Shown one piece after another: positions 3,513-13,078 of a stretch of 24,000 nucleotides of DNA. The position numbers were made by a program, and so were the translations under genes. The stretch comes from an uncultured beta proteobacterium (GTDB lineage Bacteria > Pseudomonadota > Gammaproteobacteria > Burkholderiales > Burkholderiaceae_C), in NCBI GenBank assembly GCA_963810395.1, contig CAWENC010000002.1:790004-814003 (forward strand). Reading direction: 5' to 3'. Position 1 is the first letter of the stretch; each line of letters opens with the position of its first letter. Under the pieces are notes generated by a model. That model saw only the letters and a list, made by a program, of their open reading frames with translations, was not told the origin of the DNA and did no database searches.

Positions 3513-4037
3513 ATGTTGACGGAAGACGGCAAACACCTGTATGTGAGCTATGACGAGTACCACAACCTGATCGAAAAGCTGGCCATCAAGATTTACCAAT
3601 CAGGCTGGGAATTCGACACCATTTTGTGCCTGGCGCGTGGCGGCATGCGCCCCGGTGACATTCTGTCGCGCATCTTCGACAAGCCACTGGCCATCATGTC
3701 GACCAGCTCCTATCGCTCCGATGCCGGCACGGTGCAGGGGGTTCTGGATATTGCACGCTTTATCACCACGCCCAAGGGCGAGATCGCCGGCAAGGTTCTG
3801 CTGGTCGATGATCTGGCGGATTCCGGCCATACGCTCAAGGCTGTCATGCATCAGCTCAAGACCGACTATGCGCCCATTACCGAGCTGCGCAGCGCCGTGA
3901 TCTGGACCAAGGCGCTGTCGATCTTCACGCCCGATTATTCGGTCGAGTTCTTGCCGACCAACCCCTGGATTCATCAACCGTTCGAAAGTTACGATGCCCT
4001 GCGCGCCGAGCAGCTGATTCAAAAGTGGAGCGTATGA
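3513..4037 (+). CDS. phosphoribosyltransferase (Gpt/Hpt-like, purine salvage type)
   Basis: The PRPP-binding loop is VLLVDDLADSGHTL. The ATG at 3513 sits 7 nt after AGGAG (3501-3505), so I prefer it to the TTG at 3510 used by the ORF track. Its stop overlaps the next gene's ATG (ATGA at 4034-4037). Confidence 0.8.
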   Translation: MLTEDGKHLYVSYDEYHNLIEKLAIKIYQSGWEFDTILCLARGGMRPGDILSRIFDKPLAIMSTSSYRSDAGTVQGVLDIARFITTPKGEIAGKVLLVDDLADSGHTLKAVMHQLKTDYAPITELRSAVIWTKALSIFTPDYSVEFLPTNPWIHQPFESYDALRAEQLIQKWSV

Positions 4038-5257
4038 AGGCGCGGCGCACCATGACCGATCTCACGACCACGCTGATCCATCACCCCTACACGCCGCCGG
4101 AAGGCTTCCGTGCGCCACAACCCGGCGTGTTCAAGGCCTCCACCGTCATCTTTCCCAGCGTGGCGGCGATGCGCCACTTTGAGTGGAAGGACAAGACCGC
4201 CTACACCTACGGCCTGCACGGCACGCCGACCACTTATCAACTGGAAGAGCGCCTGTGCACTTTGGAAGGTGGCTTGCAGTGCCTGCTGGTGCCGAGCGGT
4301 CTGGCCGCCATCGCCAATGTTGCTCTGTCCTTGCTGAAAACCGGCGACGAGGTGCTGATTCCGGACAACGCCTACGGACCCAACAAGGCGCTGGCTGAAG
4401 CTGAACTCAAGGCTTGGGGCATCACGCACCGGTTTTACGACTCGATGAATCCGCCCGATCTGGCGGCCAAAATCAGCGCACGGACGCGTCTCGTGTGGCT
4501 GGAGGCAGCCGGATCGGTGACGCTTGAGTTTCCTGACTTGTGCGAACTGCTGCGTCTATGCAAGGCGCGCGGCGTGCTCACCGCCCTGGACAACACCTGG
4601 GGCGCCGGCCTGGCCTTTGCACCGTTTGACCTGACACCTGGCAGCAGCCCGACCCTCGGTGTCGATGTCTCGATCCATGCGTTGACCAAATACCCCAGCG
4701 GCGGCGGCGATGTGCTGATGGGCAGTGTCATCACCCGCGACGCCGCGCTGCACCTCAAACTCAAGCTGACTCACATGCGCCTGGGCCTGGGCGTCGGCGC
4801 CAACGATGCCGAAGCTGTGTTGCGGGCCTTGCCCAGCCTGGCGCTGCGATACCGGGCGCATGACGAAACGGCCCGCACTTTGGCCAGGTGGTGCCAGACC
4901 CGTGCCGAATTTGTCCAGGTGTTGCATCCGGCTTTGCCAGACTCGCCCGGACATGCGCATTGGCGCAATCTGTGCCGCTCCGGCTCGGGTGGCGCGGCCG
5001 GGTTGTTGAGCGTGATCTTTGATGCCCGGTACAGCCAGGAGCAGATTGATGCATTTTGCGACGCGCTGAAGTTGTTCAAGCTCGGCTATAGCTGGGGTGG
5101 ACCGATGAGTCTGGTGGTGCCCTATGAACTGGCCGCCATGCGCGGTGTCTGGCCAAAGCATTTGAAGCCGGGCACTTTGGTGCGTTTTTCCGTCGGACTG
5201 GAAGCGGCGGCCGATTTGCAGGCCGATCTGGAGCAGGCACTGCAGGCAGTGGCTTGA
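4034..5257 (+). CDS. metC: cystathionine beta-lyase (PLP-dependent Cys/Met metabolism family)
   Basis: Strong resemblance to remembered E. coli MetC: YGxxGTPT, DVSIHALTKY (PLP lysine), HPALPDSPGHAHW and YSWGGPMSL. The start is uncertain: GTG 4025, ATG 4034 (ATGA overlap with the upstream stop, chosen here) or ATG 4052. Confidence 0.86.
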   Translation: MKARRTMTDLTTTLIHHPYTPPEGFRAPQPGVFKASTVIFPSVAAMRHFEWKDKTAYTYGLHGTPTTYQLEERLCTLEGGLQCLLVPSGLAAIANVALSLLKTGDEVLIPDNAYGPNKALAEAELKAWGITHRFYDSMNPPDLAAKISARTRLVWLEAAGSVTLEFPDLCELLRLCKARGVLTALDNTWGAGLAFAPFDLTPGSSPTLGVDVSIHALTKYPSGGGDVLMGSVITRDAALHLKLKLTHMRLGLGVGANDAEAVLRALPSLALRYRAHDETARTLARWCQTRAEFVQVLHPALPDSPGHAHWRNLCRSGSGGAAGLLSVIFDARYSQEQIDAFCDALKLFKLGYSWGGPMSLVVPYELAAMRGVWPKHLKPGTLVRFSVGLEAAADLQADLEQALQAVA

Positions 5258-5565: not shown

Positions 5566-8523
5566 TCAGCTCGAATGAAGTGACAAAACCTTGTCCAGTT
5601 GATCGCCATGCACAGGTTTTCCAAAATAATCCCCCTGAAACGTATGGCAACCGTTGCAGGTTAGCTGTGCCCGTTGTTCCCCGGTTTCCACTCCTTCAGC
5701 AATGACGTTCAGACCGAAGGCCTCGGCCATCGTGATGATGGCGTGCACTATGGCCTGATCGTTCTGATCCGTCACCAGATCGGACACAAATGACTGGTCG
5801 ATCTTCAACTGATCGAGAGGCAGTTTTTTCAGCAGCGACAGGGATGAAAAACCGGTGCCAAAATCATCCATCGCGAAGCCGACCCCGAGGGCCTTGATCT
5901 GATGCATTTTGTCAATCACGCGACTGACGTCATGGAGCATCAGACTCTCGGTCAGTTCAAGTTTGAGTCGGGTCGCATCGATGCCCGACTGTTCCAGAAT
6001 TCCCTTTACTTGCGCCACAAAATCGTCCTGTGAAAATTGCAGCGGACTGACATTGACCGCGACCCGCAAATGACGTTTGGCCGGATTGGCGGACCAAACC
6101 TTGATCTGGTCGCAGGCGCTGCGCATGACCCATTCGCCAATCGGCAGTATCAATTGGGTTTCTTCGGCCAATGGAATGAAGTTGGCCGGCAGGATGAGGC
6201 CCCGTTCAGGGTGCATCCAGCGCAACAGGGCTTCAACGCCGATGACGCCCAGCCCGTCTTTCACCTGTATCTGGTAGTGCAGCTGAAATTGCTGCTCGTT
6301 GATGGCCTTGCGCAACTCTTCTTCCAGAGTGATGCGCGTCTCCAGCACGGACTGCATGGTGACATCGTAAAACCGCACGGCATTGCGTCCCGCAGTCTTG
6401 GCTTGATACATGGCGATTTCGGCATGCTTGAGCAAATCGGTCATGCTTTCTTCGTGACCCTGGAACAGCGCGATTCCGATGCTGGGAGTCGAGTGGAATT
6501 CCTGGCGTGCCAGCAGATACGGTTTGCCCAAAGCGACGCGTATCGTTTGTGCCACCAGTTCGGCTTGAGTCGCGGCTTCTATCGGGTTGCCACTCGACGA
6601 TTCCATCAGCACCACAAAATTGTCACCCCCAAGATGCGACACCGTGTCGAAATCGGGTACGCAACATGGCAGGCGCTTGGCAACTTCGATCAGCATCAAG
6701 TCGCCCACTTCGTGGCCTTTGGTTTCATTGATGCTCTTGAAATTGTCCAGGTCAATGAAAATGACGGCACCGTAATGCCCGTGACGTGCGCTCGCGGCCA
6801 TCGATTGATGCAGCCGGTCCAATAGCAGACGACGATTGGGCAGTCGGGTCAGGGAGTCAAAAAAGGCCAGGCTGTGGATCTTTTCTTCATTCTTCTTTTG
6901 CTGCGTGATATCAGCAAAGTTTGCAACGTAGTTGATAACGTCGTTGGCCTGGTTGGTGACCGCAGTGATGGTCAGTTGCTCGGGATAGACCGACGCGTCT
7001 TTGCGCCGGTTCCAGATTTCCCCGTGCCAGAAACCATGTTGATTCAAGGCGGCCCACATCGCCTGGTAAAACCGGGCATCGTGTTTCCCCGATTTCAACA
7101 GGGCGGGTGTTTTGCCCACCGCCTCACCGGCGCTGTAACCGGTAATGCTGGTAAATGCCTGATTGACCTTGAGGATGATGCCTTGCGCGTTGGTCACCAG
7201 GATACCTTCCTGGGTTTCAAAAGCAATGGCGGCAACGCGCAGATCGCGGTCCAGCCGCTTGCGCTCCGAAATATCACGGCACGAGCCATAGACCTGCTGA
7301 TTCGGCAGCACCGAGGCATTCAATTCCATCGGGATCTTGCTGCCATCTTTGCGTAGCAGGTAAATTTCCCTGATTTGAGGCTCGCTGCTGCTGGCAATCG
7401 ATTTGGCGGCCTGGCGATAACGCGCGCGCCAGTCCGGCGGCACCAGATCGAATACCGTCATGGCATACAGTTCTTCGTGACTGTAGCCGAGCAGGGAAAC
7501 GGCATGGTCGTTGGCGTAACTGATTTGACCCTGCTGCGAGCAGATGAACACGGCGTCTGGTGCGCACCTCAGAATCATCTGCAGCGTGTTCTTGTTTTCG
7601 CGCAGGGACTCGTTCGTCAACTTGCGTTCGATGGCAAAGGCGATATGAAAAGCAATGGTGCTGGCCAGCCGGCTGTCGGTGGTTGAGAAGCGATGCGGCT
7701 GGTTGAAATACACCATGAATTTCCCCAGCAGCCGCCCCTGCTGTACCAGTGGAACAAAGCCAAATGCACGCAACCCTTCAGCTTTGGCCAGCGGTCGAAA
7801 GTGCGCCATGCCCGCGTCGAGCTCAATGTCATCGATAAAGATCGATTCCGGCTTCTCGGCGTCCCGGGTCCAGGGTGAATGCCCGTCGGCGCCCTGACGA
7901 TAGGCGTCCGAGAGCCCGCGCCAGGCCTTGAAGCGCATCACTGAATCGACATCGAACAGCAGGATCGAGACGCGGTCGGCTTTCAAAAGCTTGAGGATGG
8001 CATCCATGGCCGCGGCGTACACCTGTTCAAGTGAACTGGCGGTGCTGACGGTGTTGCTCAACAGGTAAAGCGCTTCGAGCTCGCTCAGGCGTCGAGTCTC
8101 CTGCAATTCCATTCGCTTGCGATCGGCGATGTCTTTGCCGACGACGTAAATCGCCTGTGGGTCCACCGAGGGGATGGCGATGCCGGTGGTCTCGATCCAG
8201 GTCTGGCTGCCGTTTTTGCAGACAAGTTTGAGCTCGACCGATTCGACGTTCGGTTCACCCTGCAGGATGCGCTGCACGCGTGACATGGCGGCAGCCCGAT
8301 AGTCCGGATGGATCACGTCCAGGATCGAGCTCCCGATGAACTCCCCGGCGTTGTCGCCGCCCAGCAATTTCACGCATTCCTGGTTGACGTAGCGGATGAC
8401 ACCCGCCACATGGATCAACATCGGAAGCGGCAGCAGTTCAGTCAACACCCGGTAGCGCTCGGCATTTTCAGCCGCCGACGCCTGTCGCTGGGTGGCCGGT
8501 GCGTCATACGTTGGGGTTTTCAT
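5566..8523 (-). CDS. c-di-GMP signalling protein, PAS-GAF-PAS-PAS-GGDEF(degenerate)-EAL
   Basis: 985 aa. PAS-like segments lie at about 25-135, 310-425 and 430-545, and a GAF-like segment at about 150-300. The GGDEF domain carries GGDNF at residues 632-636. The EAL domain has EALLRW, DDFGTGFSSL and AEGVET. Confidence 0.93.
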   Translation of the reverse strand: MKTPTYDAPATQRQASAAENAERYRVLTELLPLPMLIHVAGVIRYVNQECVKLLGGDNAGEFIGSSILDVIHPDYRAAAMSRVQRILQGEPNVESVELKLVCKNGSQTWIETTGIAIPSVDPQAIYVVGKDIADRKRMELQETRRLSELEALYLLSNTVSTASSLEQVYAAAMDAILKLLKADRVSILLFDVDSVMRFKAWRGLSDAYRQGADGHSPWTRDAEKPESIFIDDIELDAGMAHFRPLAKAEGLRAFGFVPLVQQGRLLGKFMVYFNQPHRFSTTDSRLASTIAFHIAFAIERKLTNESLRENKNTLQMILRCAPDAVFICSQQGQISYANDHAVSLLGYSHEELYAMTVFDLVPPDWRARYRQAAKSIASSSEPQIREIYLLRKDGSKIPMELNASVLPNQQVYGSCRDISERKRLDRDLRVAAIAFETQEGILVTNAQGIILKVNQAFTSITGYSAGEAVGKTPALLKSGKHDARFYQAMWAALNQHGFWHGEIWNRRKDASVYPEQLTITAVTNQANDVINYVANFADITQQKKNEEKIHSLAFFDSLTRLPNRRLLLDRLHQSMAASARHGHYGAVIFIDLDNFKSINETKGHEVGDLMLIEVAKRLPCCVPDFDTVSHLGGDNFVVLMESSSGNPIEAATQAELVAQTIRVALGKPYLLARQEFHSTPSIGIALFQGHEESMTDLLKHAEIAMYQAKTAGRNAVRFYDVTMQSVLETRITLEEELRKAINEQQFQLHYQIQVKDGLGVIGVEALLRWMHPERGLILPANFIPLAEETQLILPIGEWVMRSACDQIKVWSANPAKRHLRVAVNVSPLQFSQDDFVAQVKGILEQSGIDATRLKLELTESLMLHDVSRVIDKMHQIKALGVGFAMDDFGTGFSSLSLLKKLPLDQLKIDQSFVSDLVTDQNDQAIVHAIITMAEAFGLNVIAEGVETGEQRAQLTCNGCHTFQGDYFGKPVHGDQLDKVLSLHSS

Positions 8524-9586
8524 GAATCTTCGAATTTCGCATTATTTCTTGAGCCAAAAGCGCCATGGCGCCCGTTGAATGGTCGCGAGGCGCTATCATT
8601 TGTGCAGCACTGAAGTGCTGGAAGTTGCGCTGCATTGACTCTGTATAGCTTGGATCATAGTGCTGCGTGAGCAGCGCCTGCACCACCGGCGCGAACTCTC
8701 CGGCGCGCACCTGCGCCTGCCAGCCCTCGACCAGCGCCTTGCCCTTGAACGTGGCCAGTACCTGCAAGCGTTCGCAGAAACTCTCCACGTCGCGCACAAA
8801 AAAATCGTAGTCCTCCATCAATAGGGCAACGCGCTCCGCGTCGGGCAGCACCAGGTTCAGGCAGGGGCTTTGGCGCATGGCTTCGATCAGCGTGGCCGGG
8901 ACCGCAACATTGCCGACTTTTTTGCTTTCGCTTTCGATGTACACCGGCCGCGCAGGGTCGAGGTGGCGCAGCGATTCCCACACCAGCGTGTCAAAGCGCT
9001 TCTGGGTCGGCTGTGGTCGTCCCGGAATGGCGCCCAGCACCGAACTGCGGTGGCACGCCAGCGCTTCCAGATCGACCACCTGTGCCCCCTGTGCTGCCAG
9101 AGCCTGCAGCAGGCGGGTTTTGCCCGAGCCGGTGGTGCCGACAATCACGCGCCAGTCCAGGGCGCCGACCAGACGCGGGATGTCTTGCACCACAGCGGCC
9201 CGAAACGCCTTGTAGCCGCCTTCCACCAGAGTGACCCGAAAACCGATCTGGCTCAGGATCAGGGACAGCGCGCCGCTGCGCTGGCCACCGCGCCAGCAGT
9301 AGGCCAGCGGCTTCCAGTCTTTCGGTTTGGCGATCACTTCACGCTCGATGTGGTCGGCAATATTGCGCGCCGCAATCGCCGCGCCGCGCTTTCGGGCCTC
9401 AAACGGATTCACCTGCTTGTAGAGCGTGCCGATGACGCGCCGCTGCTCGTCATTGAGCGTGGGCCAGTTCACGGCGCCTGGCAGGTGGTCTTCCTGGTAC
9501 TCGCTTTCGCTGCGGGCATCGATCAGGGTGTCAAACTCATGCAATCGCCCGATGAGCTCGGACGCGCTCAGGGTGCTAAGACTCAT
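8504..9586 (-). CDS. selU: tRNA 2-selenouridine/geranyl-2-thiouridine synthase
   Basis: 360 aa. The N-terminal rhodanese domain has the catalytic Cys loop YCWRGGQRS, and a P-loop GTTGSGKT follows. The start ATG overlaps the tesA-like stop (ATGA, 9583-9586). The 3' end overlaps the next gene by 20 nt. Confidence 0.9.
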   Translation of the reverse strand: MSLSTLSASELIGRLHEFDTLIDARSESEYQEDHLPGAVNWPTLNDEQRRVIGTLYKQVNPFEARKRGAAIAARNIADHIEREVIAKPKDWKPLAYCWRGGQRSGALSLILSQIGFRVTLVEGGYKAFRAAVVQDIPRLVGALDWRVIVGTTGSGKTRLLQALAAQGAQVVDLEALACHRSSVLGAIPGRPQPTQKRFDTLVWESLRHLDPARPVYIESESKKVGNVAVPATLIEAMRQSPCLNLVLPDAERVALLMEDYDFFVRDVESFCERLQVLATFKGKALVEGWQAQVRAGEFAPVVQALLTQHYDPSYTESMQRNFQHFSAAQMIAPRDHSTGAMALLAQEIMRNSKIHENPNV

Positions 9587-10957: not shown

Positions 10958-11031
10958 GGAGTTTCGGCCTGTGGCACCCGTGCAGTATGCGCAAGCAGCT
11001 ACTTAAAAGATAGCAAATACGATAACTCGTA

Positions 11032-11182
11032 CCAGGCGGGTGGCGTGGCTTGCGGACTCCGGCCCTCGCTCGCGGGCGGGCTGAACTGGTCCTCCGGTGT
11101 GACAGCGTCAAGACGACCCTTGGTGCGCCGATTCTGGGGTGACCGCGAATCGGGCCTGCGCTCGCAATCCGCACCACCCACC
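11032..11182 (-). ncRNA. candidate structured RNA / structured repeat element, left copy (family not identified)
   Basis: An 11-bp terminal helix pairs 11035-11045 with 11172-11182, with two G:U pairs only on the minus strand. A 7-bp hairpin (11128-11134/11147-11153) has a 12-nt loop. This copy is homologous to the inverted copy at 12108-12260, with compensatory changes. No plausible protein is encoded. Confidence 0.45.
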
Positions 11183-11350
11183 TTTAGTGACGGACTTGGT
11201 CTCGCCTTGGTCCCCCAAACTCATCGGCTTGACGTCATTGATGGTGAAGTTGCCAATTAGAGCTCTAGACTGCGACCGGTCGTTCGACTTGGCCGATTGA
11301 TGACATTCGAGATTGTTAACTCGCCTATATCAGCGGACTAATTCAATAGA

Positions 11351-11408
11351 ATTAAGCGCTTAACACGCGCTTAACACGCGCTTGACAATCGCTTATTAAG
11401 CGCTTAAT
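11351..11408. repeat. 11-bp-phased GCGCTTAA-type repeats with two perfect palindromes
   Basis: Copies start at 11356, 11367, 11378 (GCGCTTGA), 11389 (degenerate TCGCTTAT) and 11400. The palindromes are TTAAGCGCTTAA (11352-11363) and ATTAAGCGCTTAAT (11395-11408), with centres 44 bp apart. Confidence 0.85.
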
Positions 11409-11410
11409 AT
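11382..11410 (+). promoter_or_regulatory. sigma70-type promoter of the seqA-like gene, with an overlapping operator-like palindrome
   Basis: TTGACA (11382-11387), a 17-nt spacer, then TAATAT (11405-11410), about 46 nt upstream of the ATG at 11456. The 14-bp palindrome covers the spacer and the -10. Confidence 0.55.
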
Positions 11411-11455
11411 TCTTTCACGCGCTGCTTTAGCGTGGTTGAGAACGAAAGGGTGAAC

Positions 11456-11944
11456 ATGAAGACGATTGAAGTTGAAGACGATGTGTACCACTACATCGCA
11501 GCGCAAACGAAGGAAATAGGCGAACCGGCAACAAGCATTTTGCGGAGGTTGCTGAACGTTCCTGTTGGCGTGCCAGTCAGCAAGCCAATGCCAGCGCCCC
11601 AAGCACACGAACTGGCTTCGCTTCTTGCGCAGCCGATGTTCAGTAGTTCGACCACAGCCGTTGCAAGAATGCTGAGGGTATTTAAAGAAGTTCATGCTCA
11701 AAAGAAGCAGAACTTCGACAAGGTGCTCTCGATCCAAGGGCGCAACAGAGCGTACTTTGCGAAGAGCGAGCATGAAATTTTGAAGTCGGGTAAGAGCACT
11801 CAACCGCGTGAGATTGAAGGGACCGGCTTCTGGGTTATGACGAACTCCCCGACGCCGCAAAAGCAGCAAATGGTACGTGAAGTGCTTGAAGGGCTCGGTT
11901 ACAGCCAGGCGGCGGTGAATGCGGCAGTGGCGGTGATCCAGTAG
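11456..11944 (+). CDS. seqA: SeqA-like protein (homologue of the hemimethylated-GATC-binding replication sequestration factor)
   Basis: 162 aa from the ATG at 11456 (AAAGGG SD 5 nt upstream). The N-terminus MKTIEVEDDVYHYIAAQTKEIGEPATSILRRLL matches remembered E. coli SeqA [33 protein letters not shown]. In the C-terminal domain, GRNRAYFAKSEHEILKSGKSTQPREIEGTGFWVMTNSPTPQK aligns with [42 protein letters not shown]. G+C is lower than in the flanks. Confidence 0.8.
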   Translation: MKTIEVEDDVYHYIAAQTKEIGEPATSILRRLLNVPVGVPVSKPMPAPQAHELASLLAQPMFSSSTTAVARMLRVFKEVHAQKKQNFDKVLSIQGRNRAYFAKSEHEILKSGKSTQPREIEGTGFWVMTNSPTPQKQQMVREVLEGLGYSQAAVNAAVAVIQ

Positions 11945-12107
11945 CTGAAGTGAATGGAACGCGATCCCGTCTTTCGGGGCCTCAGTCTGGCAGCCTTGGC
12001 AGAAGGCGAGCTCGAATGACTCCTCGCTGCAAGCGCGTCTTTCACACCGCAAACATTCGCACCCATGAAGGACCCAATTTGAATTCGGCATAGCCGTCAC
12101 TTTGTTC

Positions 12108-12260
12108 GGCAGGTGGATTGGGTGTCCGGTCGTCGGCCCCATTCGCGGTTGCCACGGAGTGGGCTTGCCAGCAAAAATGTTAACGCAGTAGCGACCGCGA
12201 GCAAAGCAATCGGGCCCGCGAGCGTGGGCCAGAGAACGGATACCCGGTCCGCCTGCCTGG
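12108..12260 (+). ncRNA. candidate structured RNA / structured repeat element, right copy (inverted homologue of 11032-11182)
   Basis: A 10-bp terminal helix pairs 12108-12117 with 12248-12257 (one G:U, on the plus strand). A 7-bp hairpin (12138-12144/12157-12163, one G:U on plus) has a 12-nt loop. It shares conserved blocks with the left copy, with the same 64-nt spacing between the block B and block C equivalents. It ends about 40 nt before the rlmB ATG. Confidence 0.45.
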
Positions 12261-12298
12261 CCACCGGCAGTCGCTTGGCAAGCCGCGATAATCACGGC

Positions 12299-13078
12299 AT
12301 GTCTTCCCCCAAAGTCCTGTTCGGCTTTCATGCCGTCGGCGTGCGCCTCAAAACCGCGCCCCAATCCATCATCGAGATCTATTTCGAGCCGACGCGCCGC
12401 GATGCGCGCATGCGCCAGTTCCTGGAAAAAGCCAATGAGGCAGGCATCCGTCTGATCGAGGCCGATGGCATGCGGCTGGCCAAGCTCTGCGGCGGCCACG
12501 GGCACCAGGGCGTGGCGGCGCGGGTGCAGGAGCTGGCTCAGGTCAAGTCGCTGGACGAACTGCTGGAACAGCTCGAAGCCGCGCAAGCCGACAAACCGCC
12601 GACCGAGCGCGAAGCGCCGCTGATTCTGGTGCTCGATGGCGTGACCGACCCGCATAACCTGGGCGCCTGCCTGCGCGTGGCTGACGGCGCCGGTGTGCAT
12701 GCCGTGATTGCGCCCAAGGATCATGCGGCCGGCATCAACGCCACCGTGGCCAAGGTGGCCAGCGGCGCGGCTGAGACCGTGCCTTACTTCATGGTCACCA
12801 ATCTGGCGCGCACCCTGAATGAACTGAAGGAACGCGACATCTGGATCATCGGCACCAGCGACGTGGCGCCGAAGACAATCTACCAGGCGGACCTGAAAGG
12901 CCCGGTGGCATTGGTGCTTGGCGCGGAGGGCGAGGGCATGCGCCAGCTCACGGCCAAGACCTGCGACGAGCTGGTGAGCATTCCAATGCGCGGCGCGGTC
13001 GAGAGCCTGAATGTGTCGGTCGCCAGCGGTGTCTGTCTGTATGAGGCGCTGCGTCAGCGCTCAACCGGAGCGAGTTAG
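12299..13078 (+). CDS. rlmB: 23S rRNA (guanosine-2'-O-)-methyltransferase RlmB (SpoU/TrmH family)
   Basis: The N-terminus is [11 protein letters not shown], and the SpoU motifs are [33 protein letters not shown] and [14 protein letters not shown]. The start is set at ATG 12299. The upstream 62 codons of the track ORF are not RlmB-like and coincide with the structured element. Confidence 0.9.

Follow-up and report, generated by a model that had tools for sequence, protein, structure and literature searches.

SeqA is conserved together with Dam in a subset of Gammaproteobacteria, and the presence of seqA has served as a stand-in for that of Dam (PMC4786541). In the E. coli protein, N150 and N152 belong to the DNA-binding loop, and the N150A/N152A substitution abolishes DNA binding. 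The E. coli filament is built by T18, I21 and A25, and a linker deletion, SeqA(del41-59), binds only pairs of sites about one helical turn apart (PMC2691817). We analysed a 24,000-nt stretch of DNA from an uncultured betaproteobacterium (assembly GCA_963810395.1, contig CAWENC010000002.1, positions 790,004 to 814,003; hereafter the window), which encodes a 162-amino-acid (aa) SeqA-like protein at 11456..11944 on the plus strand. Our analysis points, with somewhat better than even confidence, to a mobile, negatively autoregulated, sequence-specific SeqA-like DNA binder rather than a Dam-coupled sequestration factor. The protein belongs to a group that we call the TNSPT clade after its altered DNA-reading loop, and its probable target is the set of phased AAGCGCTT boxes in its own promoter, not hemimethylated GATC.

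The 162-aa product matches both SeqA domains in Pfam. SeqA_N (PF17206, E=2e-17, 62.6 bits against a gathering cut-off of 23), the ribbon-helix-helix (RHH)-like dimerisation and filament domain, covers residues 1-36 (11456..11563), and the C-terminal DNA-binding domain (PF03925, E=1.2e-29, 103.1 bits against a cut-off of 25.5) covers residues 52-155 (11609..11920). The best PDB sequence match by phmmer is E. coli SeqA 3FMT (3.9e-25, aa 1-151); other matches are Vibrio cholerae 3SK7, 1LRR, 1IU3 and the N-domain structure 1XRX. An AlphaFold model built from a 57-sequence alignment (predicted local distance difference test, pLDDT, 84.8) superposes on 1LRR_A with a root-mean-square deviation (rmsd) of 1.4 Å over 108 columns and a template modelling (TM) score of 0.85. 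The model also superposes on 3SK7_A and 1IU3_C (rmsd 1.4-1.5 Å) and has no significant structural match other than SeqA structures. The protein is a member of the SeqA superfamily with a genuine SeqA fold. The first-pass annotation, made from the letters alone, had proposed full-length SeqA homology and named a failure of profile searches as the outcome that would speak against it; both Pfam domains are significant, and profile, sequence and fold agree.

All homologues start with MKTIE, which in the window lies at ATG 11456, 7 nt downstream of a ribosome-binding site (AAAGGG); translation therefore does not begin at the upstream GTG (11432). The ratio of nonsynonymous to synonymous substitution rates (dN/dS) against relatives is 0.06-0.18, indicating purifying selection. 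The score against the NCBIfam SeqA equivalog NF008389 is 159.2 bits, under the cut-off of 185, and the protein has no PADLOC and no PHROG match. We judged a 442-aa open reading frame (ORF) on the minus strand (11396-12724), opposite the seqA-like gene and rlmB, to be spurious.

Residue numbering was fixed by alignment with E. coli SeqA. The equivalents of G115, R116, R118, T149, N150, T153 and K156 are kept, T117 is replaced by Asn, T151 by Ser and N152 by Pro. The first of these loops reads GRNR in place of G115-R116-T117-R118 (11738..11749, plus strand), and the second, located by phmmer and the numbering alignment, reads TNSPT in place of T149-N150-T151-N152-T153 (11840..11854, plus strand). 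Canonical SeqA is marked by Asn at both 150 and 152; here only the first of the pair is present. We take R116, T117, R118 and N152 of the E. coli protein to make atom-level contacts to DNA. The filament residues T18, I21 and A25 are present, and the window protein has the length of SeqA(del41-59) and aligns with that construct almost gap-free. The residue changes listed by the first-pass annotation all hold in this alignment.

The altered loop is shared. An alignment of 33 relatives (42-90% identity) shows near-invariant IQGRxRxYFA, SGxSTQP and WVMTNSPTxQK motifs; R98 (E. coli R118), T129 and N130 are invariant, and G95 and R96 (G115 and R116) as well as S131, P132 and T133 are kept in at least 90%. 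As judged from this alignment, N152P is the signature of the whole TNSPT clade and not a private mutation.

A pattern scan of one genome per species (185,579 species) identified TNSPT-clade loci in 23 species genomes (~0.01%), patchily distributed. Hosts include Betaproteobacteria (Thiobacillus, Sulfuriferula, Piscinibacter, Methylophilus, Alcaligenaceae and Hydrogenophilales), Gammaproteobacteria (Methylomagnum, Rhodanobacter, Halieaceae, Porticoccaceae, Marinobacter, Aidingimonas and Steroidobacteraceae) and Zetaproteobacteria. A homologue in a gammaproteobacterial metagenome-assembled genome (MAG) of Methylomagnum is 84% identical to the window protein. Such patchiness is typical of horizontal transfer, and the clade is a separate, rare, horizontally moving branch, not the orthologue of canonical SeqA. 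A gene inherited vertically in the Dam clade would sit at a conserved position; we found instead a Rhodoferax-like host, 23 scattered loci and, in a close relative described below, an empty site.

The TNSPT clade is one of several departures from the canonical loop. A full HMMER scan of 1.84 billion representatives gave 952 SeqA-family clusters, and in the best 150 of these the residue at E. coli position 152 is N in 50, D in 32, S in 19, P in 16, A in 4 and E in 1. This variety among cluster representatives implies that non-canonical loops make up a large, unstudied part of the family, and a literature search found no publication on SeqA-like proteins with such loops. Many representatives in the range P0259-P0406 carry TNNDT, TNADT, TNAST, TNTDT or other loops and are short (~160-180 aa), and some of those with non-canonical loops have longer N-terminal extensions fused to them (up to 311 aa).

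The promoter of the window gene carries the second distinguishing feature. We identified five boxes phased at 11 bp in 11354..11408 (repeat family D1), a putative operator conserved upstream of clade members: AAGCGCTT at 11354, ACGCGCTT at 11365 and again at 11376, AATCGCTT at 11387 and AAGCGCTT at 11398. Boxes 3-5 overlap a sigma-70-type promoter (TTGACA, 17-nt spacer, TAATAT; 11382..11410, plus strand; 10/12 consensus matches). The palindromes that the first-pass annotation had pointed to upstream of the gene are therefore real and non-random. Directly after the -10 lies a small inverted repeat, CACGC...GCGTG (11416..11435, plus strand), at the predicted 5' end of the transcript. This hairpin occurs at equivalent positions in L001, L004, L012, L018, L019 and L020 (handles denote loci of our collection), and in distant clade members another hairpin, CCATCGAG...GATGG, occupies this position after the -10.

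Nearly every full-length clade member carries two to five AAGCGCTT boxes over its -35 and -10, spaced 9, 11 or 22 bp, and a box merges with the -35 (GCTTGA) at 26 of the 34 clade loci. Boxes are present upstream down to 43% protein identity, including in Zetaproteobacteria, Halieaceae, Marinobacter and Porticoccaceae; the exceptions among full-length TNSP-loop genes are L027 and the weak loci of a variant group, type C, discussed below. Upstream regions totalling 3,000 bp contain 26 exact copies of AAGCGCTT, versus 6 in the remaining 266 kb of locus sequence (8.7 versus 0.02 per kb, ~375-fold enrichment). In contrast, a metagenome scan found the exact box at none of ~65 canonical TNxNT-loop seqA genes, and the E. 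coli seqA promoter has no boxes. The sole locus with boxes but without a TNSP loop, L074, has the loop TNSQT. GATC is not enriched in the upstream regions of clade genes.

The spacing recurs as well as the sequence. At clade loci, 8-mers recur at shifts of 9 bp (47%), 11 bp (29%) and 22 bp (26%), versus at most 8% at canonical loci and at most 3% in shuffled sequence. Phased box pairs number 48 at clade promoters versus 1 elsewhere in 1.05 Mb. Conserved repeated sites over the gene's own core promoter are what an autoregulated repressor would be expected to show. The lone pair outside SeqA-like promoters (L056:7310-7335, AATCGCTT/AAGCGCTT, 11 bp apart) is flanked by convergent genes and may be a relic promoter or a second target; the type-C gene of this locus, 4.7 kb away, has no clear boxes in its own promoter. 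The window as a whole holds four exact AAGCGCTT copies (0.61 expected), including one at 8068-8075 in the gene for a PAS-GGDEF-EAL protein and one at 8994-9001 in a rhodanese-domain gene.

Several observations implicate a mobile element. The gene lies between a ybbA-like ABC ATPase gene (PF00005; 10250..10957, plus strand) and rlmB (SpoU_methylase and SpoU_sub_bind; 12299..13078, plus strand; 96% identical in relatives). In a close relative (L123, a Logan contig, RlmB 96% identical) the two genes adjoin each other, separated by 83 bp. Relative to this empty site, to which the window match ends at 11001 and resumes at 12279, the window carries a 1.26-kb insertion (11026..12285) with the seqA-like gene as cargo between inverted repeats of ~190 bp. 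The left arm (11026..11212, 67% GC) aligns with the reverse complement of 12100-12290, and the right arm (12077..12278) is inverted relative to it. The two arms have 15-17-mers in common that occur nowhere else in the window and form imperfect inverted repeats.

A second relative (L122, a 2.9-Mb contig, RlmB 95% identical) has an insertion at the same site. Its left arm (3741-3924) is 76% identical to the left arm of the window, and its segment 4784-5000 matches 12077-12298, the right-arm region, at 83%. These arms (3741-5000 of ERZ25039499 contig_4265) enclose an AT-rich 172-aa ORF on the minus strand (3964-4482) without a Pfam match. Because the L122 arms at the ABC ATPase/rlmB site thus enclose a different gene, the comparison suggests cargo exchange within one inverted-repeat element. 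CGATAA, read directly from the sequence, stands at 11020 and 12286 in the window and once in the empty site of L123; we tentatively consider it a possible 6-bp target-site duplication, one that is not clearly visible in L122. The locus therefore has flanking inverted repeats, a single passenger gene, no transposase and an empty site in a relative, as expected of a mobile cassette.

A smaller unit recurs elsewhere. The promoter-plus-gene cassette (11279..12031) is 87% identical in L008 by blastn and alignment, where it lies between a DUF4143-like gene and a DTW gene, and L033 carries it from 11380 to the same right end; the flanks are unrelated in both. The gene travels with its own strong promoter. 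The first-pass annotation had read the locus as an acquired islet, and this stands in view of the empty site, the alternative gene in L122 and the recurrence in unrelated contexts; the gene is not a common, vertically inherited core gene, the outcome that would have counted against that reading. The cassette, its flanking inverted repeats and the family-wide operator go beyond that annotation.

Flanking inverted or hairpin repeats occur at 7 of 30 clade loci and additionally at L016, versus 1 of 59 canonical loci; L010, L012, L016 and L120 are among the loci that, like the window, have such flanking repeats. A self-complementary hairpin of ~130 nt (CTAACG...GGGTTAG) stands on both flanks in L010 (480-640 and 1198-1350) and L120 (80-240 and 814-960), and a junction motif, GTTAGGCCTCGC ... 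GCGAGGCCTAAC, brackets the cassette in L009, L010 and L120. In the syntenic loci L004, L012 and L016 (Thiobacillus/Hydrogenophilales), the seqA-like segment is 87-89% identical and the flanking housekeeping genes 70-81%. Only the last ~200 bp of the gene are found in L029 (9999-10199) and L030 (3761-3977), and these truncated remnants are consistent with repeated gain and loss.

We propose that the boxes are binding sites of the protein encoded behind them. Dimers or short filaments linked through the N-domain would set one C-domain on each box, roughly on one face of the helix, in an arrangement like that of E. coli SeqA on paired GATC sites. The C-domain rather than the N-domain would read the box, independently of GATC and of Dam methylation. 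Bound protein would then occlude RNA polymerase at the -35 and -10, resulting in negative autoregulation. A wider role is a guess: the protein may organise DNA or serve as a regulator, in either case sequence-specifically, through boxes dispersed in host or incoming DNA. The suggestion in the first-pass annotation of an altered specificity or a role other than sequestration gains support from N152P across the clade and from the clade-specific AAGCGCTT promoter arrays.

Several points weigh against this proposal. Autoregulation is inferred from phylogenetic footprinting alone, and no conserved neighbour points to a function beyond self-regulation: among 136 neighbouring ORFs from 23 loci we found no conserved partner gene. 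A spacing of 9 bp does not correspond precisely to a helical turn. Operators of RHH dimers classically have this layout, with an 8-bp palindrome repeated every 9-11 bp, and the box is also a palindrome of the kind targeted by type II methyltransferases. The variant groups that bear on the choice of reading domain are a small sample, with five loci of a clade that we call D, of moderate conservation, and four type-C loci, two of them weak (L113 and L056). Finally, a tblastn search with E. coli Dam over 1.03 Mb of locus sequence, including the flanks of ~45 clade loci, found a Dam-like gene near only one clade member, L021, where a D12 adenine methyltransferase lies 3.4 kb away.

The strongest competing explanation, though we consider it unlikely, is that the N-terminal RHH-like domain reads the boxes in the manner of MetJ, Arc and CopG, and that the altered C-domain binds another mark, sequence or partner. 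The perfect 8-bp palindrome AAGCGCTT and its repetition at 9-11 bp speak for it. So do the type-B members, whose diverged N-termini match both RHH_1 (E=7e-4) and SeqA_N and whose loci carry exact boxes; the double match implies that SeqA_N is RHH-like and makes RHH-type reading a serious rival. However, the N-terminal strand and helices of canonical SeqA are near-identical (MKTIEVDxxLY...IGESASxILRR), yet none of the ~65 canonical loci has boxes. Clade D (loop TNNDT, with SGxSVYP) shares this N-terminal strand (MRTIEIEDDVY in clade D), but its tandem repeats after the -35 are different (ACTCGTTAG-type, consensus ACTTGACAAACTCGTTAGACTCGTnTAACCTGTT). Type-C members have an unrelated N-terminus, without a SeqA_N domain, and still keep 9-bp TAAGC repeats in three of four loci. 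Moreover, RHH-like packing would expose T3, E5 and E7, a predicted face poorly suited to reading DNA. The canonical controls, clade D and type C thus favour the C-domain as the probable box reader.

A less probable alternative, to which we give little credence, is that the protein reads the methylation state of the box, for example hemimethylated AGCGCT or GCGC, as a SeqA analogue for a different methyltransferase. The palindromic box would suit such an enzyme, the only well-known protein of this type that reads hemimethylation has the SeqA fold, and several clade loci lie in defence or toxin-antitoxin islands. Yet the cassette brings no methyltransferase along, the 23 loci lack conserved neighbours, and hosts occur in three proteobacterial classes. 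The window shows no depletion of AGCGCT (9 observed versus 10.3 expected), which gives no hint of a cognate restriction system, and the type-C and clade-D repeats are non-palindromic.

It is more doubtful still that the protein is a functional SeqA orthologue, binding hemimethylated GATC produced by a Dam-like enzyme encoded elsewhere and sequestering oriC. The two-domain architecture, the R116, R118 and N150 equivalents and the filament residues would allow this, GATC is slightly over-represented in the window (121 observed versus 97 expected), and a D12 methyltransferase lies near the related locus L021. Against it, N152, one of the two residues whose joint substitution by Ala costs E. coli SeqA its DNA binding (PMC2691817), is Pro. 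The score is below the equivalog cut-off, the gene is missing from the closest relatives of the host genome (L122 and L123), and the clade occurs in ~0.01% of species, patchily, as in horizontal transfer. The window has neither dam nor mutH, seqA-pgm synteny is lacking, and GATC is absent between 10915 and 11731. The least credible explanation holds that the boxes are promoter architecture or sites of a host regulator, unrelated to the SeqA-like protein; box 3 does overlap the -35 hexamer, so part of the box conservation could be promoter conservation, but boxes persist across Beta-, Gamma- and Zetaproteobacteria at protein identities of 43-100%, lie also upstream of the -35 and inside the spacer, and as phased pairs are essentially confined to clade promoters (48 versus 1).

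The window otherwise encodes core genes: hisZ, purA, the PAS-GGDEF-EAL protein, tesA-like, the ybbA-like ABC ATPase, rlmB, LOG, efp, earP, uvrC and pgsA. Relatives of its pgsA and rlmB carry the name Rhodoferax sp., and by these sequences the host is a Rhodoferax-like (Comamonadaceae) betaproteobacterium; the source contig measures 923 kb. The typical Burkholderiales surroundings noted in the first-pass annotation are thus borne out, and the gene encodes a true SeqA homologue outside the Dam clade. The absence of dam, mutH, pgm and mukBEF near the gene extends across the 24-kb window, and Rfam and tRNA scans of the window found no RNA genes. A drop in GC content at the gene was also correctly seen, although its size was overstated: the gene has 53.2% GC (62% at third codon positions, GC3) rather than about 50%, against 65.1% for rlmB (GC3 81%) and 60.2% for the window. 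The 400-nt GC profile has its minimum (0.495-0.50) at 11201-11800.

Related genes lie in varied contexts. In Sulfuriferula sp. GW1 the order is a ubiE-like gene, the seqA-like gene, PIN7 and insertion sequence (IS) fragments, and in the Thiobacillus group it is thiS, the seqA-like gene and DUF1631; further clade members adjoin HicAB, MazE or DruA. Defence matches among the 136 neighbouring ORFs are scattered (AbiE, MADS, PARIS and DRT only). Outside the cassette, the window has no synteny with other SeqA-like loci. We considered a phage and a plasmid origin and rejected both: IMG/VR and INPHARED phages contained no relatives, PLSDB gave canonical SeqA only (at most 35% identity), and the left flank has no plasmid match.

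Individual loci add detail. The Sulfuriferula sp. GW1 gene (L001:10001, CP170197) lies ~46 kb into a complete chromosome record and, should that record begin at dnaA, possibly close to oriC; an IS110-type transposase fragment and the PIN7 gene adjoin it. In L005 a Transposase_20 fragment lies directly 3' of the seqA-like gene. A contig of JGI 3300047160 (P0113) carries a type-C seqA-like gene, with a 165-aa ORF and then the gene for a 697-aa DruA (Druantia) downstream of it. In L021 (Halieaceae MAG OZ271856, 10555-18383), the seqA-like gene is adjoined by a minus-strand operon encoding a 1238-aa ResIII helicase, the D12 N6-adenine methyltransferase, a HerA-like DUF87 ATPase and a 435-aa uncharacterised protein; this operon looks like a defence system.

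More broadly, the SeqA fold may be a re-targetable DNA-reading module. In this conjecture, which we hold at somewhat less than even confidence, each short SeqA-like protein would have its own phased, unmethylated motif, with AAGCGCTT as that of the TNSPT clade, and the TNSPT clade would spread in the form of a single-gene cassette that regulates itself. Within a group of sequence-specific, filament-forming DNA binders, canonical SeqA would then represent one specialised branch. The clade offers a natural specificity experiment on whether methyl-reading evolved from sequence-reading or the reverse. With the same fold and oligomerisation module, a different loop and a candidate site in the promoter, it also makes SeqA-type DNA reading directly testable. 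SeqA is regarded as a marker of the Dam/MutH clade. Proteins of the present kind carry the JGI label 'negative modulator of initiation of replication', and the existence of a clade that is rare though widespread, and whose reading loop is rewritten, shows that the use of seqA as a proxy for Dam can mislead.

Compared with E. coli and Vibrio SeqA (1LRR, 3FMT, 3SK7 and 1XRX), the window protein shares both domains and the fold, at 34% identity and a C-domain rmsd of 1.4-1.5 Å. Common residues are G115, R116, R118, Y120, F121, W146, T149, N150, T153 and K156, together with the filament residues T18, I21 and A25, and the window protein likewise probably binds multiple sites about one helical turn apart. 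It differs in its TNSPT loop (N152 to Pro, T151 to Ser), in having SGKSTQP for NGNQTKP and in a linker that is ~20 residues shorter. The gene lies outside the Dam clade, without pgm synteny and on a mobile cassette, and unlike canonical seqA it has AAGCGCTT arrays in its promoter and a predicted target that is probably not hemimethylated GATC.

RHH autorepressors (MetJ, Arc, CopG and omega) resemble the window protein in being small, dimeric and self-regulated, the last a property that we infer here, and in having an operator of short repeats, tandem or palindromic, that recur every 8-11 bp across the core promoter; its N-domain, too, is RHH-like. Unlike in these repressors, however, the RHH-like domain here is the SeqA oligomerisation domain, the evidence points to the C-domain as the probable reader, and no partner toxin or plasmid function is linked. 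Mobile insertion cassettes and elements like miniature inverted-repeat transposable elements (MITEs) likewise have long inverted repeats, no transposase, a single passenger gene, an empty site in a sister genome and the same arms around a different passenger elsewhere. In contrast to MITE-like elements, the arms here are imperfect and ~190 bp long, their sequences differ between lineages, and the target duplication CGATAA is tentative. What emerges is an unusual mobile unit, in which a single regulator-like gene moves with its putative operator inside inserts bounded by inverted repeats.

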